DNA from: a virus
Lineage: Duplodnaviria; Heunggongvirae; Uroviricota; Caudoviricetes
Direction: 5' to 3' (one strand)
IMG/VR virus record: IMGVR_UViG_2541047596_000003
DNA: 64,000 bases
Both the position numbers and the translations under genes were made by a program. This document shows positions 1 through 31,170 of this stretch, in pieces (positions within the stretch are counted from its first letter, which is position 1; each line of letters opens with the position of its first letter). Below the pieces are notes generated by a model. It ran no database searches and was not told the DNA's origin. It saw nothing but the letters and a program-made list of their open reading frames with translations.

Positions 1-237
1 GCAGTCGCTGAATTTGAACGAGACCTTTTACTTGAACGCACTCATTCCGGGATAGTAAGAGCCCGCGGCGCAGGGAAACGTTTTGGTCGACTACCTGTGT
101 TAAATGAAGAACAGAAACAGGTGGTATTCGAACGAATTAAGTCAGGTGTAAGTATAAGTGCCATTGCCCGGGAATTCAAAACCTCGCGGCAAACCATTTT
201 AAGAGCCAAAGCAAAACTTCAGACACCTGACATATAA
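1..237 (+). CDS. serine recombinase (invertase/resolvase family), C-terminal part; 5' end outside window
   Basis: Frame 1 is open from the window edge to TAA at 235-237; product ends ...[15 protein letters not shown]...[22 protein letters not shown], i.e. catalytic-domain end plus C-terminal HTH typical of resolvase/invertase. Confidence 0.6.
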
Positions 238-457
238 AAAATAATCTCAGTGTGAGATGCTTTACGTCTTCCAAGCCCCCTTCCTTGCCGTAAATGGAAA
301 GATACATCTAATTATAGAATTTATATGTTTTACCCTACGGCAGTGCTGGCCATTCAATATCCTGTGCAGTTGACGTATCAACACGGTTCAGCAACACCCG
401 ATACTTCTTCCAGGCTTCCACCACCAGCACGACAAGATGCCGCATACAGTGACCCAG

Positions 458-652
458 TCAGTCCAGTTTCCAGACAACCAGTGCGTCACCTTTTTGAAGG
501 CGCTTTAAAGCACGTTTTAATCCAGGTCGGCCTGTCCTTATTCCGCTTAATTTATCTTCAAATATTTGTTCACATCCTGCACAAACAAGAGCGTTTCGTT
601 GCAGGTCTGTATTCTGGTCATTTGTTGATACCCTTACATAGCCAATCAGCAC
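458..652 (-). pseudogene. pin-like DNA invertase, N-terminal 64-codon fragment (truncated)
   Basis: GTG at 652 then LIGYVRVSTNDQNTDLQRNAL...VVWKLD followed by a stop; matches recalled N-terminus of Pin/Gin/Hin invertases but ends after ~64 aa. Confidence 0.6.
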
Positions 653-706
653 GCTGAATCTCCCGTCCAAAAGCACAAATCATGCCATGCAGGCCAGAAA
701 CCGCCA

Positions 707-732
707 TTATCTAAAACCTCGGTTTACAGGAA
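707..732. other. gix/pix-like invertase crossover site
   Basis: TTATCTAAAACCTCGGTTTACAGGAA, one mismatch to my recollection of the Mu gix site (TTATCCAAAACCTCGGTTTACAGGAA); lies between pin fragment start and tail-fibre exon. Confidence 0.55.
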
Positions 733-1677
733 ACGATAAATCAGGCTTCTGGCGCATTACAGAAAAACCAGAACGGCGCAGATATTCCGGGAAAAGATAC
801 CTTCACCAAAAACATTGGTGCCTGCCGCGCATATAGCGCATGGCTGAATATTGGAGGCGATAGTCAGGTCTGGACAACTGCGCAATTTATTTCGTGGCTG
901 GAGAGTCAGGGGGCATTTAACCATCCTTACTGGATGTGCAAAGGCTCATGGGCTTATGCAAATAATAAGGTTATTACAGATACAGGTTGCGGAAATATTT
1001 GTCTTGCAGGTGCTGTGGTGGAAGTTATTGGCACTCGCGGCGCAATGACCATACGCGTTACTACGCCGAGCACGTCCAGCGGTGGCGGAATTACTAACGC
1101 TCAATTCACTTATATTAATCATGGTGATGCTTACGCTCCTGGCTGGCGACGAGACTACAACACGAAAAACCAGCAGCCTGCATTTGCTTTAGGGCAAACA
1201 GGACGCAGGGTCGCAAATGATAAAGCTGTTGGCTGGAACTGGAATAGCGGTGTTTATGATGCAGATATCAGTGGTGCATCGACATTAATCCTCCACTTCA
1301 ATATGAATGCGGGGAGTTGCCCTGCTGTACAGTTCCGCGTGAATTACAGGAACGGCGGTATTTTTTATCGTTCAGCGCGTGATGGTTATGGCTTTGAAGC
1401 TAACTGGTCAGAGTTTTACACCACAACACGCAAACCCTCTGCGGGGGATGTTGGTGCATATACGCAGGCAGAATGTAACTCAAGGTTTATTACAGGTATT
1501 CGCCTTGGCGGTCTGTCATCTGTTCAGACATGGAAAGGCCCCGGCTGGTCTGACAGGTCAGGTTATGTCGTTACGGGTTCAGTTAACGGAAACCGTGATG
1601 AATTAATTGATACAACTCAGGCAAGGCCAATTCAGTATTGCATTAATGGGACGTGGTATAACGCGGGGAGTATTTAA
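715..1677 (+). CDS. tail fibre C-terminal variable segment (no N-terminal constant part; ORF track start 934)
   Basis: Frame is open from the stop at 712-714, which lies inside the gix-like site, so the exon would be fused by inversion; Gly/Asn-rich fibre-tip-like sequence followed directly by tfa. Confidence 0.6.
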   Translation, partial: NLGLQETINQASGALQKNQNGADIPGKDTFTKNIGACRAYSAWLNIGGDSQVWTTAQFISWLESQGAFNHPYWMCKGSWAYANNKVITDTGCGNICLAGAVVEVIGTRGAMTIRVTTPSTSSGGGITNAQFTYINHGDAYAPGWRRDYNTKNQQPAFALGQTGRRVANDKAVGWNWNSGVYDADISGASTLILHFNMNAGSCPAVQFRVNYRNGGIFYRSARDGYGFEANWSEFYTTTRKPSAGDVGAYTQAECNSRFITGIRLGGLSSVQTWKGPGWSDRSGYVVTGSVNGNRDELIDTTQARPIQYCINGTWYNAGSI

Positions 1678-1679
1678 CG

Positions 1680-2213
1680 ATGATGCACTTAAAAAACATT
1701 ACTGCTGGCAACCCTAAAACAAAAGAGCAATACCAGCTAACAAAGCAATTTAACATCAAATGGCTTTATTCAGATGATGGAAAAAACTGGTATGAGGAAC
1801 AAAAGAATTTCCAGCCAGACACTTTGAAAATGGTCTATGACCATAACGGCGTTATTATTTGTATTGAAAAGGATGTTTCAGCAATTAATCCAGAGGGTGC
1901 AAGCGTCGTTGAATTACCTGATATTACAGCAAATCGCCGGGCTGATATTTCGGGGAAATGGATGTTCAAAGATGGCGTAGTGATAAAGCGAACTTATACC
2001 GAGGAAGAGCAGAGGCAACAAGCGGAAAATGAAAAGCAAAGCCTGTTGCAACTTGTCAGGGATAAAACCCAGCTATGGGACTCACAGCTACGGCTGGGCA
2101 TCATTTCCGACGAGAATAAACAAAAATTAACCGAGTGGATGCTCTATGCGCAGAAAGTCGAATCTACAGACACTTCCGGCCTGCCAGTAACGTTTCCCGA
2201 ACAACCAGAATGA
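1680..2213 (+). CDS. tail fibre assembly protein (Tfa)
   Basis: 177 aa immediately downstream of the fibre segment; Tfa-like size and position. Confidence 0.75.
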   Translation: MMHLKNITAGNPKTKEQYQLTKQFNIKWLYSDDGKNWYEEQKNFQPDTLKMVYDHNGVIICIEKDVSAINPEGASVVELPDITANRRADISGKWMFKDGVVIKRTYTEEEQRQQAENEKQSLLQLVRDKTQLWDSQLRLGIISDENKQKLTEWMLYAQKVESTDTSGLPVTFPEQPE

Positions 2214-2388
2214 GAGAAGGCCCGCTAGACTATCTTTAATTTCTCGCTCATACAGCCTTGCTTTATGAATAAAACGCACCCCAGCAGCCAGTGCTACTGG
2301 GGACGGAGGTGTTGCTGGTAAAGTTAGGTATTGGATCAATGAGTGAGTCAACATAATATTAAACTCACAATTATAAATCAGCCATATA

Positions 2389-3846
2389 TTAGGAGCGCCA
2401 AAAAAAACCTGAAAACAATATAATAACAGGATAAATTTCAAGGCGACCAAGAATCATAGCTATGCACATTAAACATTTTGCAATGTCATTAAGCACTCCG
2501 AATGACGATGCAGTAGCCCCAAAACCTAATCCCATATTATTAATACATGCAGCCACTGTTGCAAATGATGTAAGAAAATCATATCCCATACCATTTAACA
2601 CCAGTATAAAAAACACCGTGAAGAGAGTATAAAGAAAAAAGAAACTCCATACAGACCTCATTACACGATCTGTAACTATCTTCCCTCCTACATTTACACT
2701 CAACAACGCTCTGGGATGAGAAAGCTGATTTATCTCGTGTTTGCTTTGTTTGAAAAGTATAAGAAATCGAAGTGACTTAATTCCACCACAAGTTGAACCT
2801 ATACATCCCCCAAAGAAACTTGACAACAGCAAAAACACTATCGTGTGCGTGGGCCAACTTGCATAATCCTGCGTAGCTAAACCATTATCAGTGAGCATGG
2901 AGCTGGCAAGAAAAAACGAATGAATAAAACTTCCATGCAAGTCATACATACCTATATGCCAGACCTGGAAAGAGGTAACAATGATCACCCCTAAGGCTAT
3001 TAACAGAAAGAAACGAAGTTCAATATCTCTGATTAAAGGTTTTATCGTTTTCCTGCTAATAACAATATACCAAAGAGTGAAGTTGAAAGCCGATAGCAGG
3101 GAAAAAGAACCAGCCACCAGCTCAACCAAATAGTTATTAAAATATCCGATACTCTCGCTATGAGTTGAGAAACCACCAAGCGAAACTGTGGAAATCCCGT
3201 GACAAATAGCATCAAACAAAGGCATTCCTGCAAGTCTATAACAGACAATACAAGCAATACCTAATAAAGAATAAGTTATCCACAGTGTCCGTGACGTATC
3301 GGCCAGGCGGGGAGTGAGTTTGTCATCCTTAAATGGCCCCGGCATTTCTGACTGATAAAGCTTTGCACCACCAATACCCAATAATGGCAATACTGCAACC
3401 GCCAGAACAATAACTCCTAAACCACCTATAAAATTTAACTGTGACCGATAGTACAAATATGCCCGAGGTAATGAACTAACATCATCAATTACAGTTGCTC
3501 CTGTTGTTGTTATTCCAGAAACCCCTTCAAACAGAGCATCAATGAACGTTAAATTAAGTTCTGAGTCAATCCATAAAGGGAATGCACTAATAACAGAAAA
3601 CAAAATCCAAAACATTACAATTATAATAAACCCATCACGGGTACGTAATTGAATGCCAGATTTCTTAGTTGTATACCACGCTCCGCCACCAATGCAAAAA
3701 AATATAACGAAAGTTATAAAGAAAACGAACAGGATTTTTTCTTTATAAAACAATGCTACAACCATTGGTGGCAACATTGAAAGACTATAGAGCCAAACCA
3801 AGAACCCACACATATGAGTAACAACTCTTACATGAGATGTATTCAT
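2389..3846 (-). CDS. trkG: Trk-system potassium uptake protein TrkG
   Basis: Polytopic membrane protein with TrkH/TrkG-type sequence; ATG at 3846 (MNTSHVRVV) gives 485 aa as in Rac TrkG; ORF track start 3864. Confidence 0.85.
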   Translation of the reverse strand: MNTSHVRVVTHMCGFLVWLYSLSMLPPMVVALFYKEKILFVFFITFVIFFCIGGGAWYTTKKSGIQLRTRDGFIIIVMFWILFSVISAFPLWIDSELNLTFIDALFEGVSGITTTGATVIDDVSSLPRAYLYYRSQLNFIGGLGVIVLAVAVLPLLGIGGAKLYQSEMPGPFKDDKLTPRLADTSRTLWITYSLLGIACIVCYRLAGMPLFDAICHGISTVSLGGFSTHSESIGYFNNYLVELVAGSFSLLSAFNFTLWYIVISRKTIKPLIRDIELRFFLLIALGVIIVTSFQVWHIGMYDLHGSFIHSFFLASSMLTDNGLATQDYASWPTHTIVFLLLSSFFGGCIGSTCGGIKSLRFLILFKQSKHEINQLSHPRALLSVNVGGKIVTDRVMRSVWSFFFLYTLFTVFFILVLNGMGYDFLTSFATVAACINNMGLGFGATASSFGVLNDIAKCLMCIAMILGRLEIYPVIILFSGFFWRS

Positions 3847-3983: not shown

Positions 3984-4460
3984 TTACTTTAAACACTGCT
4001 CGGTTATGTATTGCTGAGCACCTTCAAGTTGGGCCTGCATCATTACCAGTCGTTCCCGGAGGGTGAAATAATCCCGTTCAGCGGTGTCTGCCAGTCGGGG
4101 GGAGGCTGCATTATCCACGCCGGAGGCGGTGGTGGCTTCACGCACTGACTGACAGACTGCTTTGATGTGCAACCGACGACGACCAGCGGCAACATCATCA
4201 CGCAGAGCATCATTTTCAGCTTTCGCATCAGCTAACTCCTTCGTGTATTTTGCATCGAGCGCAGCAACATCACGCTGACGCATCTGCATGTCAGTAATTG
4301 CCGCGTTCGCCAGCTTCAGTTCTCTGGCATTTTTGTCGCGCTGGGCTTTGTAGGTAATGGCGTTATCACGGTAATGATTAACAGCCCATGACAGGCAGAC
4401 GATGATGCAGATAACCAGAGCGGAGATAATCGCGGTTACTCTGTTCATTGCTGACCCCAC
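3984..4460 (-). CDS. Rz-like i-spanin
   Basis: 158 aa, N-terminal TM then coiled-coil, directly downstream of the endolysin; contains embedded +1 lipoprotein ORF. Confidence 0.75.
4043..4228 (-). CDS. Rz1-like o-spanin lipoprotein (embedded in Rz)
   Basis: [20 protein letters not shown] lipobox plus proline-rich body, wholly inside the Rz frame. Confidence 0.65.
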
Positions 4461-4942
4461 AAACAGATTTCACGCTCAATCTCACGACGAGTCATGAGAC
4501 CTTTCCATTGCTTACCGCCAGCATATGTCCAGCGACGTAGCTGATCACATGCGCCTTTGATATCGCCCTGGTTTATTTTGCGAAGAAGCGTCGATGTTCT
4601 GAAATTGCCAGCACCCACGTTGTAAACGAATGAGTAAAGAGCGCCGCGCGTTGTTTCCGGTATATCGACTTTGATGTACGGGTTAATTTGTCTGGCGACC
4701 GTGGCAAGGTCTTTATTCAAGAGTGTTTTGCATTCTGCTTTGGTATACGTTTTACCGAGCATGATGTCTTTTCCTGTATGCCCGTGACATACAGTCCATA
4801 CACCAACAATATCTTTGTATGGTATGTAGCTGACACCTTCCAGACCATCGTTACCACTTGGGCCAGTGATTAACACTGATGCTATAGCAATTGCTCCGCC
4901 ATCAATAGCAGCAGCAACGACTTTTCGTAATGATGGAGGCAT
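4445..4942 (-). CDS. phage lysozyme / endolysin (GH24-like)
   Basis: 165 aa with the lysozyme R family signature ...[19 protein letters not shown]...; between holin and Rz. Confidence 0.85.
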
Positions 4943-5408: not shown

Positions 5409-5804
5409 CTAACCTCGCATGTCAAAGCCAGATTTCTGAAAATCTCTGTAGACTTCCGGATTGTTGAAGGCCGGAAATTTGGCTTTATGAGCTGCGGACT
5501 TTATCGCTTCGCAATAGGCTTTATCACCGTTACTGGTAGATATTTTTAACGCCGTGCCATCCTGAGAGAATTCCATATGCAACCTGCATTTTTTCCCTTT
5601 CCAGTTATGCGGCTCATCAAGTTTGGCATTAATTGCAGCTCTGATTCCCCGCGCTTGCGCCCCCCATTCATCCTGATCATCCCAGCGTCCTGAACTGCAA
5701 CTACCTGTAGCAGTAGTTTTGTGGCAATCTGAAGGGTGTAAAGGTGTGCATCCCGCAACAAAACCGACCCAAAAAGTCAACATAACGATTTTCTTTAATC
5801 CCAC
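5409..5804 (-). CDS. lipoprotein with divergent TolA domain III-like C-terminus
   Basis: Signal peptide with lipobox VAGC; C-terminus ...KGKKCRLHMEFSQDGTALKISTSNGDKAYCEAIKSAAHKAKFPAFNNPEVYRDF resembles TolA-III; start 5804 is GTG with SD GAGGAG. Confidence 0.6.
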   Translation of the reverse strand: MGLKKIVMLTFWVGFVAGCTPLHPSDCHKTTATGSCSSGRWDDQDEWGAQARGIRAAINAKLDEPHNWKGKKCRLHMEFSQDGTALKISTSNGDKAYCEAIKSAAHKAKFPAFNNPEVYRDFQKSGFDMRG

Positions 5805-5954: not shown

Positions 5955-6383
5955 TCAGGGTTTAAAATCCAGCACCCCATTTTGAAATACTTTATATACT
6001 TCCGGCGAAGGGGGGGCAGGTATATCAGCATTCTTTATCGCATTCATCGCTTCACGACATAAATCGAGGTCTCCACTTTCTCTTTTAACCTCCAGTAGAA
6101 GGCCATTCGGGGCCATATGCATTCTCAGTGTACACTCTTTTCCTGAATACTTACTCGCATCCCCGAACTGTTTTTCGATGGCGCTCTTGATTTGATGGGC
6201 ATACAGACGGATATCCTCACTAACATCAGAAGTACGTTCAGATGAACTCACATACTGTGTCTCTATTGCTTTATCGGAGTAATATGATGTACGGTCATGA
6301 TAATTTGTCGATACAGCATCAGTGCACCCGATAATAATCCCACTAATAATCAACGTAAGAATTGATGCGCTACGAAAACCCAT
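5955..6383 (-). CDS. lipoprotein with TolA domain III-like C-terminus
   Basis: Signal peptide with lipobox IIGC; C-terminal ~90 aa YAHQIKSAIEKQFGDASKYSGKECTLRMHMAPNGLLLEV...CREAMNAIKNADIPAPPSPEVYKVFQNGVLDFKP closely parallels recalled E. coli TolA C-terminus ending ...VYEVFKNAPLDFKP. Confidence 0.65.
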   Translation of the reverse strand: MGFRSASILTLIISGIIIGCTDAVSTNYHDRTSYYSDKAIETQYVSSSERTSDVSEDIRLYAHQIKSAIEKQFGDASKYSGKECTLRMHMAPNGLLLEVKRESGDLDLCREAMNAIKNADIPAPPSPEVYKVFQNGVLDFKP

Positions 6384-9223: not shown

Positions 9224-9627
9224 AGTAGCCACATGATAAGTTGCTGGAATCATATTTCCCACTCAAGTCATTAACATTTGATAAGATATATCTAAAAGGA
9301 CGCCTTTACATTATTTATGTGTATATAATTTATTTATATACACAGTAAAGGTATCCTGGGAAAATATTTATCGTTAAAAAATACATCATAAATAATTAAG
9401 CTGAAATTTCAGAACACAACTAATACACACAATAAGGTTCAGTAACAATAATCTATGTGGACTACATCGAGATTTTTTGATTAAACTTTAATAACTTATT
9501 CCTAACACACAGAATGCATAAACTAAAAGTAAAACAAATAGTTATACGAAAAACAACCATATTTATTATATCTTCTCCTCTAATCAACATATCAATTATG
9601 TGTTTCATAACAGCTTGACATAACCCT

Positions 9628-9658
9628 CAAAAACACGCATTTATAATGCATGTTTTTG
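9628..9658. promoter_or_regulatory. operator-like palindrome over a TATAAT box upstream of the yeaR-like gene
   Basis: CAAAAACACGCAT-TTATAA-TGCATGTTTTTG (13-bp arms, one mismatch); TTGACA at 9615-9620; resembles NsrR-type sites as I recall them. Confidence 0.35.
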
Positions 9659-9669
9659 AGGAGGTGGTT

Positions 9670-10008
9670 ATGACACACAAGAGAATTCCTAAAGATTGGG
9701 TAATCAAACGCTCAACTCCGTTCTTCACAAAAGAGAACGTACCTTCAGCGTTATTAACACATCATAATACAGCAGCAGGTGTTTTTGGGCAGTTGTGCGT
9801 AATGGAAGGCACTGTAACATATTATGGTTTTACTGATGAGAATGCTACTGAACCGGAGATAAAAGTAGTCATTAATGCTGGCGCTTTTGCAACAAGCCCA
9901 CCACAATACTGGCACCGTGTTGAACTAAGCGATGATGCTCAGTTTAATATTAACTTTTGGGTCGCTCCAGACTTCTCGGGCGAAAAAGTCTATAGCACCA
10001 AAAAATAG
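9670..10008 (+). CDS. YeaR-like DUF1971 protein (TehB N-domain-like)
   Basis: 112 aa from ATG 9670 with SD GAGGAGGTGG; motifs STPFF, HHNTAAGV, MEGTVTYYGF, FNINFWVAP resemble chromosomal YeaR; ORF track start 9646. Confidence 0.6.
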   Translation: MTHKRIPKDWVIKRSTPFFTKENVPSALLTHHNTAAGVFGQLCVMEGTVTYYGFTDENATEPEIKVVINAGAFATSPPQYWHRVELSDDAQFNINFWVAPDFSGEKVYSTKK

Positions 10009-10037
10009 ATGATCATATTAAAAATGCTTTAACAGTC

Positions 10038-10075
10038 AGACCCGGCAGGGCTATCCCCGACGGGTCTCATTTTTG
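10038..10075 (+). terminator. rho-independent terminator after the yeaR-like gene
   Basis: Stem AGACCCG / CGGGTCT with a 16-nt loop, then TTTT at 10071-10074. Confidence 0.45.
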
Positions 10076-10459
10076 TAAATATATTGGTTCTACATTGACA
10101 GGAGACTTCAACCATAAGAAGTAATCTGAATACTTGAGCAATAAATTTACTTAAGATTAATGAGCGCACCTTGCCGGACAAAGATAAACCAAGGTAACAC
10201 CTTTTTTCTAGCCAGTATGTAATCAATCAGAAAGCCGCTCCATAAGAACAACAGCAAGACAATAAATTGCCATTACAGCCGCAATAGCCAGCGCACATTT
10301 GAGAACCAGCACGACACCCCCCTGTATTAGACGCACACCAGTCCTGATAAATATAAGGCTGTCTCGTCAGTGATTCAATACAACTATTGGGTATAGTTTC
10401 TGTGATTTTATTCTGTAGAAATGGAACACAACAACCAGTCACCACCAGCACTTCTTTAA

Positions 10460-14511: not shown

Positions 14512-15198
14512 CTAGTATTCGTTGGCGATGCTGTGTCGAATCACCTGCTCAGGTGAAAAACCCTGCTGGCGGAATTTTTCCAGCTCCCGTATCGCCCCGT
14601 TAGCGCCCTGCTCCGTTCGAATCGGTTTTCGCAATGCCTGCCTGAACTGAACCCACTCATGCCAGAGTGTTTCCGGCAACCAGTCAGGCAGCTCGATAGC
14701 CTCCGGTTCGAATTTTTTAGACGCTCGTTTTTGGCGAGGGGGATTTAGGGGGAGATAAGTATTTATATCTTCCTCTTTCTCTTCCTCTGGTAACGCTTTT
14801 TGATCCGTTTTTGTAACGCTGGCAGCGTTACCTTTTCGTTTCAGTTCTCGTATTTTTGTTACTCTCTCGTTTGTAACCGCCCGTTTTTTAGAGCTTTTCC
14901 CGTTATGGCGCTCAAAGTTAGGAAGCGACAACACACCATTAGTTTCGACCAGCCATCCAACCTGAATTAACGCATCAGCAAAACCAGCCATAAAAGTGAT
15001 GCGATCTATTGCACTTTTTGTAACGCCGCGAGCGTTACACTCTGCGTTACCGTCTATCATTTGTTGATCCGCCCATGCCCAGAAGCGAATGACTTTCCCT
15101 AATGCGGCATCTGGATCAATATTCAGAATCTCAGCAAGCCTGAATATTTCCGGCTTATCCGGCGTAATAACTTCGAGCTTTATCCAGTTTGAAGCCAT
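14512..15198 (-). CDS. replication initiation/organiser protein (YdaU-like)
   Basis: 228 aa upstream of the DnaC-like gene, basic C-terminal half; positional call. Confidence 0.55.
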   Translation of the reverse strand: MASNWIKLEVITPDKPEIFRLAEILNIDPDAALGKVIRFWAWADQQMIDGNAECNARGVTKSAIDRITFMAGFADALIQVGWLVETNGVLSLPNFERHNGKSSKKRAVTNERVTKIRELKRKGNAASVTKTDQKALPEEEKEEDINTYLPLNPPRQKRASKKFEPEAIELPDWLPETLWHEWVQFRQALRKPIRTEQGANGAIRELEKFRQQGFSPEQVIRHSIANEY

Positions 15199-15275
15199 TT
15201 GTTTTCACCTTGTAACGCTCGCAGCGTTACATTTAACTGATACCGAACAAAACAGTTCGGTACGATTAATTTCAA

Positions 15276-15698
15276 TCAATGCACTACGACAGAATCGCTA
15301 GGAGAACCGCCGCCGCTGAAATGTGCTTTACGGTAAACGGCCTGGACTGCATCATCATGCGCATCAATTGCCGTACTCAGTGCATCCTGTGCCGCCAGTA
15401 ATGCACGGCGTTCCAGGGTATCGAAGATGCAGAGTCGGTGACGCAGCTCGCGAGGAAGAATTGCCAGAACCGCAGGGATCAGTTTCTGAATTTTTTCCCT
15501 TTGCGCATTCGTTTCACCTTTCAACCAACGATGATAGATATTCTGCTGATTGTTCCAGTCCTTGCCTGGTACCAGGGGCAATTCGCCGCCCCCCTGGCGC
15601 AGATATTCTTCAGTAATTGCGTTAGCGACCCACGCCTGCCCTTTTTCGGCTGCCAGGGCTAACAACACTGATTCGATGTGCTCATGCTTGATTTTCAT
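15276..15698 (-). CDS. ydaT: YdaT-like prophage protein
   Basis: 140 aa (MKIKHEHIESVLLALAAEKGQ...), same length and position as Rac YdaT, co-oriented with the Cro-like gene. Confidence 0.65.
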   Translation of the reverse strand: MKIKHEHIESVLLALAAEKGQAWVANAITEEYLRQGGGELPLVPGKDWNNQQNIYHRWLKGETNAQREKIQKLIPAVLAILPRELRHRLCIFDTLERRALLAAQDALSTAIDAHDDAVQAVYRKAHFSGGGSPSDSVVVH

Positions 15699-15949
15699 GA
15701 ATCAACTCCCATCAGCTTTTTCGTAGTAGTTTTATTTCTGCCAATAGTTAAAATTGCATCGGCAGAAAATAATCCGTTTGATGCATGAGCGATTTTTTCA
15801 GCGTAATTTGTTTCGCCGGTATATTCTGTGCGAGGCAATTTTCCGTTATCCATCCATTTGTAGATTGCTCTTTGGCTGACACCACAAACGTCGGCCACAA
15901 CAGAAACGCGAACAGTTTTGATTACATCTTCAAGTGTTTTCTGGTTCAT
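15695..15949 (-). CDS. Cro/YdaS-like HTH regulator
   Basis: ATG 15949 (MNQKTLEDVIKTVRVSVVADVCGVSQRAIYKWMDNGKLP); ORF track start 16021 would leave no room for divergent promoters. Confidence 0.6.
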   Translation of the reverse strand: MNQKTLEDVIKTVRVSVVADVCGVSQRAIYKWMDNGKLPRTEYTGETNYAEKIAHASNGLFSADAILTIGRNKTTTKKLMGVDS

Positions 15950-16028
15950 ATCACCCTCACAATGTGAACTTTGAGTACATGCTATAACAGAACTGACAGT
16001 ACATTCAAGAGCGAATATCATTGAACTT
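15950..16028. promoter_or_regulatory. immunity-region divergent promoter/operator segment
   Basis: 79-bp gap between divergent HTH genes; contains direct repeats AGTACAT 26 bp apart. Confidence 0.4.
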
Positions 16029-16448
16029 ATGGTTCATGAAGATAAAGCGCGTAAAGAGTTCGCCAGTAGGCTTGCGCTAGCCTGTGAAAACGCTGGTTAT
16101 GAACAACATGGAAGGCAGGCAGAAATTGCCCGTCGAATGAAATTAACACCAAAAGCGGTTAGCAAATGGTTTAATGGTGAAACAATTCCTCGCCGAGAGA
16201 AATTAAGGGAATTAGCAACACTCATTGGAACAACACCAACCTATCTTTTGGGAGAGGATACAGAAGAAAGTGGACAGATACGTTTCTATCAGGAGTTAAA
16301 TCCAAGACAAAAAATCATCATTGACCTTCTGGACGAGCTCCCTGACAGTGAGACAGATGAACTTTTAAAAACTCTTGAGGAGAAAAAACAGAAGTACAAT
16401 GCAATTTACGAAGAGTTAGCACGAAAGAAAAAACAAAAAGCCTCTTAA
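16029..16448 (+). CDS. XRE-family prophage repressor (RacR-like)
   Basis: 139 aa with HTH ...KLTPKAVSKWFNGETIPRREKLRELATLIGTTPTYLLGE; divergent from the Cro-like gene. Confidence 0.65.
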   Translation: MVHEDKARKEFASRLALACENAGYEQHGRQAEIARRMKLTPKAVSKWFNGETIPRREKLRELATLIGTTPTYLLGEDTEESGQIRFYQELNPRQKIIIDLLDELPDSETDELLKTLEEKKQKYNAIYEELARKKKQKAS

Positions 16449-16735
16449 ACCAGCATAAATCCGGTAGCGTCCCCCTCCGGGTTTGTGCTTCACTTTATCC
16501 CGTCTCATTTTTTTATACATAAAATGTACTTAAAGTACTTTACAATGATGAACACAAAGTACATTATATACCTACCAACCCACCCCGCCCCACAGAACGC
16601 CGGGCAATACTTCGAGTTACCAGGCAGTGGTCAGGGGTTAAGTAGCCAGCCCGAGGCGTATGAACATGACGGCGGGATTCAAATTTTGCAGTGCAGCAGT
16701 TAGTTCCGCCACCCGGCGTTAAGGGGATAGATAAG

Positions 16736-16870
16736 ATGGTGCATTACGAAGTAGTTCAGTATTTGATGGATTGTTGCGGTATCACTTACAACCAGGCTGT
16801 GCAGGCTTTACGCAGCAACGACTGGGATCTCTGGCAGGCAGAAGTCGCTATACGTAGCAACAAGATGTGA
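16736..16870 (+). CDS. ydaG: small Rac protein YdaG-like (44 aa)
   Basis: Hand translation MVHYEVVQYLMDCCGITYNQAVQALRSNDWDLWQAEVAIRSNKM; below the ORF-track size cutoff. Confidence 0.55.
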   Translation: MVHYEVVQYLMDCCGITYNQAVQALRSNDWDLWQAEVAIRSNKM

Positions 16871-16880
16871 GATTCGCAAA

Positions 16881-17036
16881 ATGCAAAAAATCGACCTCGG
16901 CAACAACGAATCCCTGGTGTGCGGCGTGTTCCCCAACCAGGATGGAACGTTCACTGCCATGACGTATACCAAAAGCAAAACATTTAAAACCGAAACTGGT
17001 GCGCGCCGATGGTTGGAGAAGCACACAGTAAGCTAA
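16881..17036 (+). CDS. ydaF: small Rac protein YdaF-like (51 aa)
   Basis: Hand translation MQKIDLGNNESLVCGVFPNQDGTFTAMTYTKSKTFKTETGARRWLEKHTVS. Confidence 0.55.
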   Translation: MQKIDLGNNESLVCGVFPNQDGTFTAMTYTKSKTFKTETGARRWLEKHTVS

Positions 17037-17521
17037 CGATTAAAACGTCTACTCCTGCTGTTCCAGAATAACTTCATAAAATGGGAGTATTTTTCGGTGA
17101 CGAGATAATAAGAACAGTTTGCGCTATCACTCTGATGTTGAATGATGCCCTTCCGTTCTAATTTTTTCATAACCGGGTTACGGCAAGGAGAAGTGATAAT
17201 AAGATTTCCTGTTTTAAGGAAATCTTTAAATACAGCGATTTCTTTCTCAGATAAACGAAGCAATACTCGTTGCTCTGGTAGTAATGAATAATGCTTTTGA
17301 ATATGTGCTCGCAATCTTGAGAAGGAAATGGCGACCACGAAAGAAAAGGCAAAAACGATAATCTGAAAGAGCCAAGGTATTTCAGTATAAGCATTGAATG
17401 CGGCAGTAAACTCTTTCGGTATCAGCCAGAGAGTGAGACCAAAAATGATAATCGTATACATAAGTCTTTCGAGTGGCTCGTTAGCAAAAAGTTTCAACAA
17501 TGGAGTAAATACATCCAACAT
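17033..17521 (-). CDS. sieB: superinfection exclusion protein B
   Basis: 162 aa from ATG 17521 (MLDVFTPLLKLFANEPLERLMYTIIIFGL), membrane N-terminus; ORF track start 17644. Confidence 0.75.
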   Translation of the reverse strand: MLDVFTPLLKLFANEPLERLMYTIIIFGLTLWLIPKEFTAAFNAYTEIPWLFQIIVFAFSFVVAISFSRLRAHIQKHYSLLPEQRVLLRLSEKEIAVFKDFLKTGNLIITSPCRNPVMKKLERKGIIQHQSDSANCSYYLVTEKYSHFMKLFWNSRSRRFNR

Positions 17522-17962
17522 ATCAATAACTCTCAACTGTAAGGGTATTGAAATGTTAACACAAGCTCTCGCTGTAGGGGTATAGCCGAGACCACCGAAG
17601 TCTGGAGGTGGTGAAATAAAACCGGGCACAACACGAAGGCGCATTTCCGATATCCATAAAGAGTCGGTCTTGTCTGTTAAATTTAAATGGTGGGAGTGCG
17701 CCTCCGGTTGTAAATAACGACATTGCTGTGTGTAGTCCTGGCGGCATCAGTTTTTTTCTTGAAGTTCGGCTGATGTCCGCCCTTTTTAAAGTGAATTTTG
17801 TGATGCGGTGAATGCGGCTAAGCGCACGTGGCACAGTTAAAAGTCATGTTAGTCCTTATTGGTTTGGGTGGGAAAGCCGACTGTAATTGTTAACTGGTTG
17901 CAGTCACCTGGAGGCACCAGGCACCGCATCAACAAAGTTCATTTGTAAAAATGGAGATAATT

Positions 17963-18184
17963 ATGATTGCACATCACTTCGGAACTGATGAAATACCACG
18001 TCAGTGTGTGACTCCTGGCGATTATGTTCTTCATGAAGGCCGGACATATATTGCCTCGGCAAACAATATTAAAAAGCGAAAACTATATATTCGTAACCTG
18101 ACCACAAAAACATGCATTACTGACCGCATGATTAAAGTCTTCCTCGGTCGTGATGGTTTACCTGTAAAGGCGGAGTCATGGTGA
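17963..18184 (+). CDS. kilR: KilR cell-division inhibitor
   Basis: 73 aa [29 protein letters not shown]... from ATG 17963 with SD GGAGA. Confidence 0.8.
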
Positions 18185-18354
18185 TGACTAAGAAAATAAA
18201 ATGTGCTTACCACCTTTGCAAAAAAGACGTTGAAGAAAGCAAAGCTATTGAAAGAATGCTTCACTTCATGCACGGGATTTTATCAAAAGACGAACCGAGA
18301 AAATATTGCAGTGAAGCTTGTGCCGAAAAAGACCAGATGGCACATGAACTTTAA
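18184..18354 (+). CDS. ydaE: YdaE-like small Cys-rich protein (56 aa)
   Basis: Hand translation [56 protein letters not shown]. Confidence 0.65.
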   Translation: MTKKIKCAYHLCKKDVEESKAIERMLHFMHGILSKDEPRKYCSEACAEKDQMAHEL

Positions 18355-18428
18355 TTAATTGACTATTCGAAACTGAATTTATGCCAGAAATGGCAGGTAT
18401 TCGCTCAACCTTAATTAAGGAGAAAAAC

Positions 18429-18704
18429 ATGATTACCAATTATGAAGCCACTGTTGTAACTACCGATGACATTGTTCACGAGGTGAATCTGGAAGGAAAG
18501 CGCATTGGCTACGTAATTAAAACAGAAAATAAAGAAACCCCATTCACTGTGGTTGATATCGATGGTCCATCAGGCAACGTAAAAACACTTGATGAAGGTG
18601 TCAAAAAAATGTGCCTGGTGCATATCGGAAAGAATCTGCCCGCAGAAAAAAAAGCCGAATTTCTGGCAACTCTAATTGCAATGAAATTAAAAGGTGAAAT
18701 CTGA
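18429..18704 (+). CDS. racC: RacC
   Basis: 91 aa from ATG 18429 (MITNYEATVVTTDD...) with SD AAGGAG. Confidence 0.75.
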   Translation: MITNYEATVVTTDDIVHEVNLEGKRIGYVIKTENKETPFTVVDIDGPSGNVKTLDEGVKKMCLVHIGKNLPAEKKAEFLATLIAMKLKGEI

Positions 18705-18805
18705 AAGAAATAGCCTGCGTATGGCGCAGGCTATGAACAGTGTGTATCCGGCAAGATCATTCACTGAACAAAACGAATTTTAATCTGAGTTGAGGTTAAA
18801 AAACA

Positions 18806-21406
18806 ATGAGCACAAAACCACTCTTCCTGTTACGGAAAGCGAAAAAATCATCCGGTGAACCTGACGTCGTCCTGTGGGCAAGCAACGATTTTGAATCGAC
18901 CTGTGCCACTCTGGACTACCTGATCGTTAAGTCAGGTAAAAAACTGAGCAGCTATTTTAAAGCTGTTGCCACGAATTTTCCTGTCGTTAATGACCTGCCC
19001 GCTGAAGGTGAGATCGATTTTACCTGGAGTGAACGCTATCAACTCAGCAAAGACTCCATGACATGGGAACTAAAACCGGGAGCAGCACCAGACAACGCTC
19101 ATTATCAAGGCAATACCAACGTCAACGGCGAAGACATGACTGAGATTGAGGAGAATATGCTAATCCCAATTTCTGGCCAGGAACTGCCCATTCGTTGGCT
19201 TGCTCAACACGGCAGCGAAAAACCGGTAACGCACGTTTCACGCGACGGACTCCAGGCATTACACATTGCTCGGGCTGAAGAACTACCGGCTGTTACTGCC
19301 CTGGCTGTTTCCCACAAAACCAGCCTGCTCGACCCGCTGGAAATTCGCGAACTCCACAAACTGGTTCGTGACACTGACAAAGTTTTCCCTAATCCTGGTA
19401 ATTCAAACCTGGGACTGATAACTGCTTTTTTCGAAGCATACCTGAACGCTGACTACACCGATCGAGGACTGCTGACAAAAGAGTGGATGAAGGGTAATCG
19501 TGTTTCACACATCACTCGCACGGCTTCCGGTGCTAATGCTGGCGGCGGAAACCTCACCGATCGCGGCGAAGGTTTCGTACACGATCTGACGTCACTGGCG
19601 CGCGACGTAGCCACTGGCGTACTGGCCCGTTCAATGGATCTGGACATCTATAACCTTCATCCGGCACACGCTAAACGCATTGAGGAAATTATCGCTGAAA
19701 ATAAACCGCCCTTTTCTGTTTTCCGCGACAAATTCATCACCATGCCTGGCGGGCTGGATTATTCCCGCGCCATCGTGGTTGCGTCCGTAAAAGAAGCACC
19801 AATTGGGATCGAGGTCATCCCCGCGCACGTCACTGAATATCTGAACAAAGTACTGACTGAAACCGATCATGCCAACCCTGATCCGGAAATCGTGGATATT
19901 GCCTGCGGTCGCTCCTCTGCCCCGATGCCGCAGCGAGTAACAGAAGAAGGAAAACAGGATGATGAAGAAAAACCGCAACCATCTGGAACAACGGCAGTTG
20001 AACAGGGAGAGGCTGAAACAATGGAACCGGACGCAACTGAACATCATCAGGACACGCAGCCGCTGGATGCTCAGTCACAGGTAAATTCTGTTGATGCGAA
20101 ATATCAGGAACTGCGGGCAGAACTCCATGAAGCCCGGAAAAACATTCCATCAAAAAATCCTGTCGATGCCGATAAATTGCTTGCTGCATCACGTGGTGAA
20201 TTTGTTGACGGAATTAGCGACCCGAACGATCCGAAATGGGTAAAGGGGATCCAGACTCGCGATTGTGTGTACCAGAACCAGCCAGAAACGGAAAAAACCA
20301 GCCCAGATATGAATCAACCTGAGCCAGTAGTGCAACAGGAACCGGAAATAGCCTGCAATGCCTGCGGCCAGACTGGCGGGGATAACTGCCCTGACTGTGG
20401 TGCGGTGATGGGCGACGCAACATACCAGGAAACATTCGATGAAGAGAGTCAGGTTGAAGCTAAGGAAAATGATCCGGAGGAAATGGAAGGCGCTGAACAT
20501 CCGCACAATGAGAATGCTGGCAGCGATCCGCATCACGATTGCAGTGATGAAACTGGCGAAGTCGCAGATCCCGTAATCGTAGAAGACATAGAGCCAGGTA
20601 TTTATTACGGAATTTCGAATGAGAATTACCACGCGGGTCCCGGTATCAGTAAGTCTCAGCTCGATGACATTGCTGATACTCCGGCACTATATTTGTGGCG
20701 TAAAAATGCCCCCGTGGACACCACAAAGACAAAAACGCTCGATTTAGGAACTGCTTTCCACTGCCGGGTACTTGAACCGGAAGAATTCAGTAACCGCTTT
20801 ATCGTAGCACCTGAATTTAACCGCCGTACAAACGCCGGAAAAGAAGAAGAGAAAGCGTTTCTGATGGAATGCGCAAGCACAGGAAAAACGGTTATCACTG
20901 CGGAAGAAGGCCGGAAAATTGAACTCATGTATCAAAGCGTTATGGCTTTGCCGCTGGGGCAATGGCTTGTTGAAAGCGCCGGACACGCTGAATCATCAAT
21001 TTACTGGGAAGATCCTGAAACAGGAATTTTGTGTCGGTGCCGTCCGGACAAAATTATCCCTGAATTTCACTGGATCATGGACGTGAAAACTACGGCGGAT
21101 ATTCAACGATTCAAAACCGCTTATTACGACTACCGCTATCACGTTCAGGATGCATTCTACAGTGACGGTTATGAAGCACAGTTTGGAGTGCAGCCAACTT
21201 TCGTTTTTCTGGTTGCCAGCACAACTATTGAATGCGGACGTTATCCGGTTGAAATTTTCATGATGGGCGAAGAAGCAAAACTGGCAGGTCAACAGGAATA
21301 TCACCGCAATCTGCGAACCCTGTCTGACTGCCTGAATACCGATGAATGGCCAGCTATTAAGACATTATCACTGCCCCGCTGGGCTAAGGAATATGCAAAT
21401 GACTAA
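18806..21406 (+). CDS. recE: exonuclease VIII (RecE)
   Basis: 866 aa, the length of K-12 RecE; acidic linker and C-terminal nuclease domain; followed by recT with overlapping ATGACTAA. Confidence 0.9.
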
Positions 21407-28610: not shown

Positions 28611-28895
28611 TTAAGCCCATGCGCGGACGCCTGGATCTGGAACGATGAAAGGCTCAAGCTGAGAAATATCAACATCGTCACCAGTTATACGCACGTTGAC
28701 GTAATAACCTTTTTTCCCAATAAGTACAGGTGTCTCGCTTTCTGGATCGTCGAATACAAGGACAAAACCGATATCATCAATAAACACGGTTGACCAATTG
28801 GCATCCAGCCAGCCGCTATTAATCACAATGTCGTTGTATTGCTGTTTGTCAGTAAATTGCAAGCTAACGTCTTTCATGTTAACCACCTTAAACAA
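28611..28895 (-). CDS. hypothetical protein downstream of tail fibre (possible fibre chaperone)
   Basis: 94 aa, start overlaps the tail-fibre stop. Confidence 0.4.
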   Translation of the reverse strand: MFKVVNMKDVSLQFTDKQQYNDIVINSGWLDANWSTVFIDDIGFVLVFDDPESETPVLIGKKGYYVNVRITGDDVDISQLEPFIVPDPGVRAWA

Positions 28896-30684
28896 TTTCG
28901 CTTAATTGCGCATCAGTTAATGCCTTATGCCATACTCGAAAATTTCTAACATGACCAAATAAATGACGTTGTCCTGTCGTTGTCTGACCACCGATACGAA
29001 TAGTTGCGGAGCTTTGAATATAAGTCCAGGTTGTTTTTGTTTCGCTGCTTAACTTACCGTTACTGACTACACATGTGGACCGTTCGGACTTTACCCGCAT
29101 ACCAATAAGCATTTTTTCCAGCCCGGCATTTTCATTTATTCGTCGGTTTGAACCACCTATATCACAATACGGAAAACCGTCGTACCCACCTGATGAACCA
29201 AACCCCATTACGATCGCCGCTCCGGTTTGATGACCGCCGGTATCAAAAACACGCGGCGCTGCATTTGGCGTTTTATACCAGTTCTTATGTACCTCACAAA
29301 GAACCGTAAAAGGAAGATTATAAAGGTTATTCTTGATTGGGACTGTCACCATATCGCTTGCCCGCGTTGCTGGTGCCGACCCCGTAACAATAAAAGATGA
29401 TGCGCCTGCACCAGCCTCAATCTGTGGAGTGGTTACATCGAGACAATCCCCTGATGCCACCATCTGACCTGTATCCGGAGAATACTGGACGAAACCACCA
29501 ACCGTATTTTCTGTTGTATCTGCTTTTAATGTAGCCTCAAAAAATATCCAGCCAGTTGCATCATCCTTAACAGACCTTGCTGTAACACGGCTTGTCTGAC
29601 CTGTCTTGCTAATTATGCGGGTGGTAAGGTTCAGGTTTGCTGCTCCTATTGATGTCCTTACCTCCCCATCATAATGTTCAAATAAAATACGAACGGCGAT
29701 ATTATCAACTTCACTTTTTACCCGACAGGATATAGTTACATGCTTTTCGTCCCCTGAAGTATCAACCCCTCCGGCACTCGAATACAGTCCGATAATGGTA
29801 TGCGCTTTACTTGTACCAACAATCGAATCCTGTACGACAAACCGGCCATAATTAAACCCAAAACTATCTGTGCCTGTTTCTGTAACGTCCAGTGAAGTTG
29901 ACTTATTCCACTTCGAAGGGTCTGTACTGTTTATTAACAGGTTTGTGCGCGTCCCCTCAATCAGTAATCCTTCGCGTTCAAAACGTGGCTCATTAATACC
30001 AGCCACAGTTAAAACACCTGATTTGTTAATGTAAGTAGCAGTGCTTGCGCGTGAGAAAGAAACAACTTTATCTGATGATATTGTTTTTTCTTCCCCATTA
30101 ATGGTTACTTTTTTAGTACCAGGGCCGTAGCCCGTGATCATATCGAGAGAATCGTTAAACGGTATCCATACGTCCGGCAGCGGTTGCAAAACATACGCGT
30201 AAGGCTGTGCGGTCTGATTGGCGTATTCGTGGGCTTCGTCTCTGTATGTCTTAGCTGAATCGGCTGCGCTTGTCGCTGTTGTTGCAGCGTTGGTTGCAGT
30301 GGTAGCTGATTGTGATGCTAATTTTGAGGCTGAAATCACATCTTTGTTGTCGCTAAAAAATTCAACTGCGTCCGCTATTTCTGATTCTTTGCCCTGATAG
30401 TAACGCAGTGTTTCGGCGACATCCTGAGCAAGACCATCCACAGAGATCGAATCTGAAAGCAGGATGCTAAATTTAGTTCCAGCCGGAATAGCCGGACTTG
30501 CCGCAGGAGTTACCGACAAACTTGTTGCGCTTTTTACCTTTGTGATTGAAAAAATCTGCACCGGATCGCTAATGGCAATAAGAGTGCAACCCACTCTGAT
30601 CAGAGATAATGCGGCGTTGAATTCAGTCCCTGCCCCGGTAACTGTGTTTCCGCTAACAGCTATAGTGCCTGTTGTGTAAATCAT
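28888..30684 (-). CDS. side tail fibre protein
   Basis: 598 aa, Thr/Ser/Gly-rich, downstream of J. Confidence 0.7.
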   Translation of the reverse strand: MIYTTGTIAVSGNTVTGAGTEFNAALSLIRVGCTLIAISDPVQIFSITKVKSATSLSVTPAASPAIPAGTKFSILLSDSISVDGLAQDVAETLRYYQGKESEIADAVEFFSDNKDVISASKLASQSATTATNAATTATSAADSAKTYRDEAHEYANQTAQPYAYVLQPLPDVWIPFNDSLDMITGYGPGTKKVTINGEEKTISSDKVVSFSRASTATYINKSGVLTVAGINEPRFEREGLLIEGTRTNLLINSTDPSKWNKSTSLDVTETGTDSFGFNYGRFVVQDSIVGTSKAHTIIGLYSSAGGVDTSGDEKHVTISCRVKSEVDNIAVRILFEHYDGEVRTSIGAANLNLTTRIISKTGQTSRVTARSVKDDATGWIFFEATLKADTTENTVGGFVQYSPDTGQMVASGDCLDVTTPQIEAGAGASSFIVTGSAPATRASDMVTVPIKNNLYNLPFTVLCEVHKNWYKTPNAAPRVFDTGGHQTGAAIVMGFGSSGGYDGFPYCDIGGSNRRINENAGLEKMLIGMRVKSERSTCVVSNGKLSSETKTTWTYIQSSATIRIGGQTTTGQRHLFGHVRNFRVWHKALTDAQLSEIV

Positions 30685-31140: not shown

Positions 31141-31170
31141 AAAAAACGGGGCTTATGCCCCGTTTTTTAT
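31141..31170. terminator. bidirectional rho-independent terminator
   Basis: AAAAAA-CGGGGC-TTAT-GCCCCG-TTTTTT between convergent J and the moron. Confidence 0.6.

Follow-up and report, generated by a model that had tools for sequence, protein, structure and literature searches.

Does a stretch of prophage DNA that holds one crossover site, a broken invertase gene and a tail-fibre exon without a constant part still operate as a switch, or is it what remains of one? The question is raised by the first 2,213 positions of the IMG/VR virus record IMGVR_UViG_2541047596_000003 (Duplodnaviria; Heunggongvirae; Uroviricota; Caudoviricetes), a stretch of 64,000 nucleotides that is referred to here as the window. 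The Mu G, P1/P7 C, e14 P and Salmonella H segments are the textbook systems of this kind. An original prediction, made from the letters of the window, read these positions as what is left of an invertible tail-fibre segment that either was frozen, by deletion or rearrangement, or has its partner elements beyond the window edge. Our comparison with complete genomes suggests, with a probability of about 0.9, that the locus is a dead relic, the gin-proximal half of a phage Mu-type invertible G segment that ends a Rac-type lambdoid prophage.

The first 2,400 bases of the window are matched at 99.7-100% by seven complete Escherichia coli chromosomes, SCZE5 and XH993 among them, and the region lies at the end of the cryptic Rac prophage nearest to uspF/ompN. 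For the upstream comparison, we used the 12 kb that flank the window start in genomes matching window 1-2400, and homologues and junctions were counted over 5,426 complete genomes. The coordinates of all features are collected in Table 1, and every coordinate given in the original prediction was confirmed.

Crossover site, gin fragment and fibre exon

The 26-bp sequence at 707-732, TTATCTAAAACCTCGGTTTACAGGAA, has the architecture of the family, a 2-bp core between half-sites of 12 bp. Compared with the reference sites themselves, it matches gixL and gixR of Mu (TTATCCAAAACCTCGGTTTACAGGAA) at 25 of the 26 positions in each case, the partner gixL of the relative 1217KP at 24, cixR of P7 at 20 and pix of e14 at 17-18. 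It occurs once in the 64 kb, with 0 occurrences expected from 100 shuffles, and the near-perfect gix-type match of the original prediction was thereby borne out. The sole difference from Mu gix is a C-to-T change at position 6 of the outer half-site, which creates a TAA stop codon (712-714) inside the site. As had been anticipated, the fibre frame opens directly after this stop, beginning with NLGLQET... as in Mu, and ends at a stop codon at 1675-1677.

No second crossover site was found in the 64-kb window or in the 12 kb upstream, either with the 26-mer (at most 3 mismatches) or with a degenerate Gin/Cin/Pin/Hin consensus (sites of the Gin family follow the pattern TTNYCNNAAACCNNGGTTTNNNGRAA). 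Complete relatives have two inverted sites that flank the segment, 3,053 bp apart; in the window there is no such pair, and no local inversion is possible because one gix site is left. The suggestion that the partner elements might lie just beyond the window edge did not survive the upstream comparison. The order read from the SCZE5 flank is ompN, uspF, ynaM, ydfK and then intact pinR, and these 12 kb contain only those genes and no second inverted gix-like site. The start of the recombinase gene that is cut by the window edge was found there, so that the different serine recombinase C-terminus noted at 1-237 is real and belongs to pinR, which is not a fragment in the genome. An intact pin gene next to a second site, which would have spoken for a functional system, is not what the flank holds: the intact gene is pinR, only 36% identical to Gin at the protein level, and it is not accompanied by a site.

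The minus-strand gene starts at 652, 55 bp from the crossover site. Its coordinates and its length of 64 codons had been predicted correctly; its type had not, the fragment being a Mu gin rather than an e14 pin. The encoded peptide is 95% identical to Gin residues 1-64, covers positions 2-73 of the 145 in the Pfam Resolvase model and has no helix-turn-helix (HTH) domain. It keeps the region of the catalytic Ser9 only, without E-helix and DNA-binding domain, and therefore cannot recombine DNA. No intact invertase with catalytic domain, E-helix and HTH adjoins the site at the window locus.

The high identity to Mu gin breaks off exactly at the TGA. The stretch past the stop (ATGCGG...GTGG) is about 79% identical to cin versus about 50% to gin, as counted by hand from the alignment; its codons correspond to stub codons 66-79 and are fused in frame to the remnant of tfaR. 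We considered the stub as a plain nonsense mutant of a continuous gin and rejected this, because the identity to Mu ends at the stop and is followed by about 14 cin-like codons and then by tfaR. The sequence leaves both origins of the TGA possible, from CGA or not. The stub is a mosaic invertase fragment with a stop codon that was joined to the 3' end of tfaR by illegitimate recombination.

RefSeq annotates a "tail fiber assembly protein, missing N-terminus" at 335-430. Positions 238-334 and the tfaR remnant together form a tfaR-pinR junction of the K-12 type, and up to about position 425 the window runs collinear with K-12, through pinR and the intergenic region into the final ~30 codons of tfaR. 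The block at this left junction, from window 344 onward, is also seen at the end of a lambda-like prophage in PSS-13, at the bio locus, and in many further strains. The truncation of gin is an old and widespread event: hundreds of E. coli genomes have it, at two prophage sites.

An equivalent of the Fis-dependent recombinational enhancer (sis) may persist in the surviving part of gin. Over gin nucleotides 1-100 the window does not differ from Mu, the putative enhancer would lie about 96 bp from the gix centre, and two Fis-site-like 15-mers are found at 617-631 and 568-582, where 0 are expected. The P7 record annotates the Cin enhancer at cin nucleotides 19-86. Three Fis sites are described inside gin, about 550 bp upstream of mom (PMC3378877), and the Hin enhancer measures 65 bp and is located about 100 bp from hixL (PMC3798978).

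The likeness to Mu extends well beyond the site. Window positions 462-2227 form a single uninterrupted block of 1,766 bp that is 94.4% identical to Mu 35282-33517 and 95-96% identical at the nucleotide level to D108 and P88. Its contents are the initial 192 bp of gin with the gin leader, then gixR, the S' variable part and U', and its far end is the G-segment midpoint. An assignment to the e14 Pin/pix type, implied by the predicted match of the 26-mer to pix, is ruled out by 17-18 identities to pix against 25 to gix, by the 95% identity of the stub to Gin and by the 94-96% identity of the DNA to Mu, D108 and P88.

As in other members of the family, a variable exon starts at the crossover site and is followed by its chaperone. 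The exon shares 308 of 320 amino acids (96.2%) with the variable part of Mu S', and the chaperone 172 of 177 (97.2%) with Mu U'; a 250-bp stretch of the exon is 97.6% identical to Sv of P7. The exon has no start codon of its own, no promoter-like signal and no constant part. In the flipped isomer found in TUM9868 it is fused to the constant part and forms the C-terminus of a 945-aa side tail fibre. A search of the window by tblastn with the 627-aa constant part did not recover it, in agreement with the original prediction that neither a second site nor a constant fibre gene would be found here. Likewise, lom and the Rac J gene are absent from the window by tblastn, and a promoter scan upstream of the exon returned nothing beyond chance. 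The locus cannot act as a switch because there is a single site, no constant part and no promoter-like signal beyond chance.

RefSeq annotates as a protein the 247-aa open reading frame (ORF) at 934-1677. Two annotations can be improved: what is called a "hypothetical protein" (934-1677) represents the C-terminal exon of a fibre of the Mu S' type, and behind the "recombinase family protein" of 64 aa there is a dead gin.

The deletion and the complete cassette in relatives

In an alignment with both parents, identity with the left parent continues to 2227 and identity with the right parent begins at 2226, which leaves a 2-bp microhomology, TA. The left end of the deletion is within the 4-nt loop of a perfect hairpin, AAGGCCCG-CTAT-CGGGCCTT, that separates the convergent tfa' and tfa genes halfway along the G-like segment. 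To the right of the deletion follows ynaK-trkG of the K-12 type. About 27.2 kb are gone relative to TUM9868, including a 1.3-kb IS3 that is possibly not ancestral. The removed DNA comprised half of the invertible segment with the other exon and its chaperone, gixL, the fibre constant part, lom, J and all head and tail genes. The exact junction is present in 7 of the 5,426 complete genomes, with the same arrangement in all seven. The deletion is real and rare, and it is probably a single recent event; we infer that it arose by hairpin-associated illegitimate recombination. The invertase was also considered as the agent and rejected, as gix is 1.5 kb away and the junction falls in a hairpin loop with only 2 bp of microhomology.

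The complete segment is seen in relatives, and the original reading of a remnant frozen by deletion was supported, with the junction mapped to the base. 1217KP shares window 1-2227 with only 2 nucleotide differences. Past 2227 it has a convergent tfa, another variable exon and a second gix (TTATCGAATACC...), inverted and 3,053 bp from the first, followed by the 627-aa constant part, lom and J. The full prophage of TUM9868 reads trkG, ynaK, terminase, portal, capsid, tail, J, lom, Stf, G-like segment, gin', tfaR stub and pinR. The constant part that adjoins the other crossover site in such copies belongs to the 27 kb deleted from the window.

The sequence of TUM9868 is that of 1217KP precisely inverted between the gix centres, with 5 mismatches in 14.8 kb compared to 2,200 if left uninverted, and none of the 5 is in the segment or at its edges. 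The same holds at the bio site, where ET76 corresponds to PSS-13 inverted (9 mismatches in 16.8 kb versus 2,202 uninverted) and where no recombinase gene adjoins the cassette. A query for the inverted junction, gin'-gix followed by the other exon, was built from the 1217KP sequence and searched, and genomes covering at least 80% of a query were counted. The inverted junction matches at 100% identity, always together with the same dead gin and tfa stub, and was found in 139 genomes against 132 for the orientation of the window, the 132 including the 7 genomes with the deletion. Both Rac and the bio/lambda attachment side harbour the complete cassette with its dead gin, and it occurs in either orientation. 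Inversion by RecA is unlikely, since the gix core is surrounded by a perfect inverted repeat of only about 25 bp and exchange always took place at the site.

Because the gin of the cassette itself is dead, these clean inversions point to an invertase acting in trans, and they mean that the truncation of gin did not lock the segment. We infer that intact cassettes are flipped by such an enzyme. Candidates are common, with pinR/pinQ-type genes in 52% of the genomes and gin-family 3' halves in 58%. PinQ and PinR, when produced, reportedly invert the P segment of e14 from a different prophage, and with native expression a mutant in pinE stays locked (Kirigo et al. 2025, PMC12529663). Furthermore, Gin, Hin and their sites are interchangeable according to the part of PMC1904230 that cites Plasterk 1983.

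The neighbouring pinR encodes an intact protein of 196 aa in the genome, collinear with and ~99% identical to K-12 pinR. In the alignment of PinR with Gin the QxxRL motif is absent and helix B has fewer basic residues; QxxRL is described as unique to Fis-dependent invertases (PMC3798978). If PinR flips gix/pix segments, it may do so without canonical enhancer contacts.

Proposed history and rival explanations

The comparison of genomes shows that the locus was shaped in steps. An older event killed gin at codon 65 and fused it, by way of about 14 cin-like codons, to the final ~30 codons of tfaR; gix was spared, as were the leader of gin and its first 192 bp with the putative enhancer. In relatives the whole 3,053-bp segment is found in both orientations, cleanly inverted at the gix centres, and the enzyme would be supplied in trans. 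An illegitimate deletion of ~27 kb, probably a single event, took out the DNA from the hairpin loop to ynaK codon 9 in the lineage of the window, leaving no switch function at the window locus and the neighbouring pinR still intact. It was this separate, rare deletion that froze the segment, and not the gin truncation. The copy in the window is a case of ordinary, stepwise prophage decay, with the deletion mapped to the base.

Nothing contradicts the reading of the locus as a dead relic, and three considerations temper it. It draws on comparative genomics. The site scan covered the 64-kb window and 12 kb upstream, and long-range recombination with the orphan site may be possible. Furthermore, the ORFs of exon and chaperone are still open, which fits a recent deletion and would also fit retention driven by function.

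The most serious of the rival explanations is that the system is alive and that its second site, constant fibre gene and invertase are located outside the window, so that the segment or a larger chromosomal stretch still inverts. The intact pinR that straddles the window edge, the undamaged sequence of the orphan gix and enhancer, the flipping in trans of intact cassette copies and the reported inversion of the e14 P segment by PinQ and PinR across prophages (PMC12529663) all lend it some appeal. However, no site of the gix, cix, pix or hix type was found in the 64-kb window or in the 12 kb upstream, and gixL and the constant part, the latter absent from the window, are exactly the DNA taken by the mapped deletion. 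A partner would have to be a site in a distant prophage, and recombination with it would yield a large chromosomal inversion and not a fibre switch. We consider a live switch very unlikely. Only marginally less probable than this is domestication, by which a C-terminal receptor-binding fragment of the fibre (for example 934-1677) would act together with Tfa' at the cell surface, for instance by blocking phage receptors. For this there is a precedent in the StfE2 fibre fragment of e14, which blocks adsorption of T2 (PMC12529663), and both ORFs of the window are uninterrupted, one of them being called as a protein in RefSeq. Yet there is no promoter-like signal upstream beyond chance, and an exon of this kind normally needs the 627-aa constant part to make a fibre. 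The intactness of the ORFs is explained by recency, given 2 differences in 2,227 bp to 1217KP and a junction in 7 of the 5,426 genomes. Finally, tail-fibre and tfa sequences are repeated across prophages, with thousands of partial matches at a median of 2 places per genome, and a mis-join during assembly at such repeats could be imagined. The junction is base-identical in 7 independently assembled complete genomes from different hosts and countries, and it falls in unique sequence, the hairpin loop joined to ynaK, and not in a repeat. An artefact is for these reasons the least probable explanation by some distance and is as good as refuted.

We therefore favor the hypothesis that the copy in the window is a relic. 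For the intact copies, one idea is that the cassette is a widespread "orphan" host-range switch. Every copy would have a dead gin and a 3.05-kb segment that still flips, the stub would be kept for the Fis enhancer in cis and its adjacency to gix, and the enzyme would be borrowed, either the neighbouring PinR in the case of Rac or a Gin-family invertase encoded by a different prophage. It would follow that the gix and enhancer beside pinR in the window could drive large chromosomal inversions with the sites of other prophages. We regard this idea, taken as a whole, as tentative, with a chance slightly short of even. Apart from this idea, the dead-gin cassette is common in E. coli lambdoid prophages and is found in its two orientations at about 1:1, which implies that host-range switching in these prophages depends on recombinases from elsewhere in the genome. 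Flipping in trans bears on the recent claims of PinR and PinQ acting across prophages, and in the calling of invertible loci a missing adjacent invertase should not be taken to mean that a segment is locked.

Neighbouring sequences and known systems

Table 1. Features at the left end of the window, with coordinates in the window.
Feature	Coordinates	Strand	Match or remark
pinR 3' end, last 78 codons + stop	1..237	+	Cut by window edge alone; Pfam Resolvase + HTH_7
tfaR 3'-end remnant, last ~29 codons + stop	335..424	-	Caudo_TAP positions 104-130 of 131, E=2e-12
Invertase-like sequence past the gin' stop, about 14 codons	419..457 (approximate)	-	Nearer to P7/P1 cin than to Mu gin
gin', first 64 codons of Mu-type G-segment invertase, then TGA	458..652	-	WP_001378636.1
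Putative equivalent of Fis-dependent recombinational enhancer (sis)	567..634	-	gin nucleotides 19-86
gixR-type 26-bp crossover site	707..732	+	Central dinucleotide TC at 719-720; sole such site in window
Orphan variable fibre exon (homologue of Mu S' variable part), 320 codons + stop	715..1677	+	gp37_C (Pfam), Mu alignment
Tail-fibre assembly chaperone (Mu U' homologue), 177 aa, intact	1680..2213	+	Caudo_TAP, E=2e-36
Hairpin left arm and part of loop, left end of deletion	2214..2227	.	Junction 2226-2227
First 8 codons of ynaK (ATG + 7), running into a stop; right end of deletion	2226..2251	-	Breakpoint in codon 9
trkG, after its terminator	2389-3846	-	

Beyond the locus itself, the remainder of the Rac prophage differs somewhat among the genomes that share the deletion. 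The window has an intact lysozyme ORF of 165 aa at 4445-4942, where SCZE5 and XH993 carry an IS3; it is without the IS1 copies of SCZE5 and XH993 (9335-10260) and keeps about 5.8 kb that XH993 has lost (14646-20405). Among the complete genomes compared, none is identical to the window. Next to the Rac lysis cassette, two ORFs at 5409-5804 and 5955-6383, both on the minus strand, are annotated in relatives as proteins with a TolA C-terminal domain. These are an unusual prophage cargo that might interfere with Tol-dependent colicins or phages.

A second, apparently complete prophage of the siphovirus type occupies window positions of about 28450-58000, beside zntB/ydaN, and is 99.9% identical to that of E. 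coli M1/5. It encodes a tail-tip fibre of 1,656 aa (31167-36137, minus strand) and a "head spike fibre" protein of 598 aa (28888-30684, minus strand), and the annotation of the relative lists among the accessory genes a ParE-like toxin, an anti-CBASS protein of the Acb1 family and a TagO-like protein. We found no invertase and no gix-type site in this prophage. A J-like match at 33.6-36.1 kb was considered as the J gene of Rac and rejected, since it belongs to this unrelated second prophage.

Earlier work describes lambdoid phages that carry an invertase and fibre genes in opposed orientation (PMC12315714), and catalogues of programmed inversions in fibre genes exist (PMC9881135, PMC4272514). 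In the open-access literature we found no earlier description of a dead-gin cassette in Rac- or lambda-type prophages, or of the near 1:1 split between its orientations.

The closest counterpart is the G segment of Mu. The order and orientation of the gin 5' end, leader, gixR, S' exon and U' are the same, the site agrees at 25 of 26 positions, the putative enhancer shows no differences, the frame reads across the site just as it does in Mu, and the segment in relatives has a similar size (3,053 bp versus 3 kb in Mu). In contrast to Mu, the version in the window resides in a lambdoid prophage of the Rac type, where the cassette is attached to the constant part of a lambda-type side tail fibre, gin is dead, and half of the segment, gixL and the constant part have been deleted. 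The C segment of P1/P7, with Cin and cix, shares family and architecture, and stub codons 66-79 are cin-like. It differs in its size of 4 kb and in a cixR that matches the window site at 20 of 26 positions, and the segment and exons of the window are otherwise Mu-like.

The P segment of e14 is likewise a fibre cassette in a defective lambdoid prophage, with divergent invertase and exon genes and a crossover site between them. Unlike the locus in the window, e14 keeps a working invertase and both sites, and the window stub is Gin-like and not PinE-like. The P segment also provides a precedent for the invertase of one cryptic prophage flipping the segment of another (PMC12529663; Plasterk and van de Putte 1985, as cited in PMC4272514). 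The term "shufflon-type" in the original prediction was a misnomer for a system of one segment, two sites and an invertase of the serine type. A shufflon, with the tyrosine recombinase Rci, at least three sites and several segments, is ruled out by the two sites and one segment of the complete relatives and by the serine type of the associated recombinase genes.

Within E. coli, the locus can be compared with the Rac end of K-12, stfR-tfaR-pinR. Window positions 1 to about 425 are collinear with it, and the ynaK-trkG side is alike. However, K-12 has a fixed stfR-tfaR and no G-like segment, whereas in the window a Mu-type cassette replaces most of tfaR, and the tail region is deleted at other points. 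In K-12 Rac, pinR is directly convergent with the fixed stfR-tfaR, without an invertible segment, and full Rac-type prophages carry the G-like cassette at exactly this place. The arrangement in K-12 may itself be a derivative one, in which the cassette was lost or never gained.

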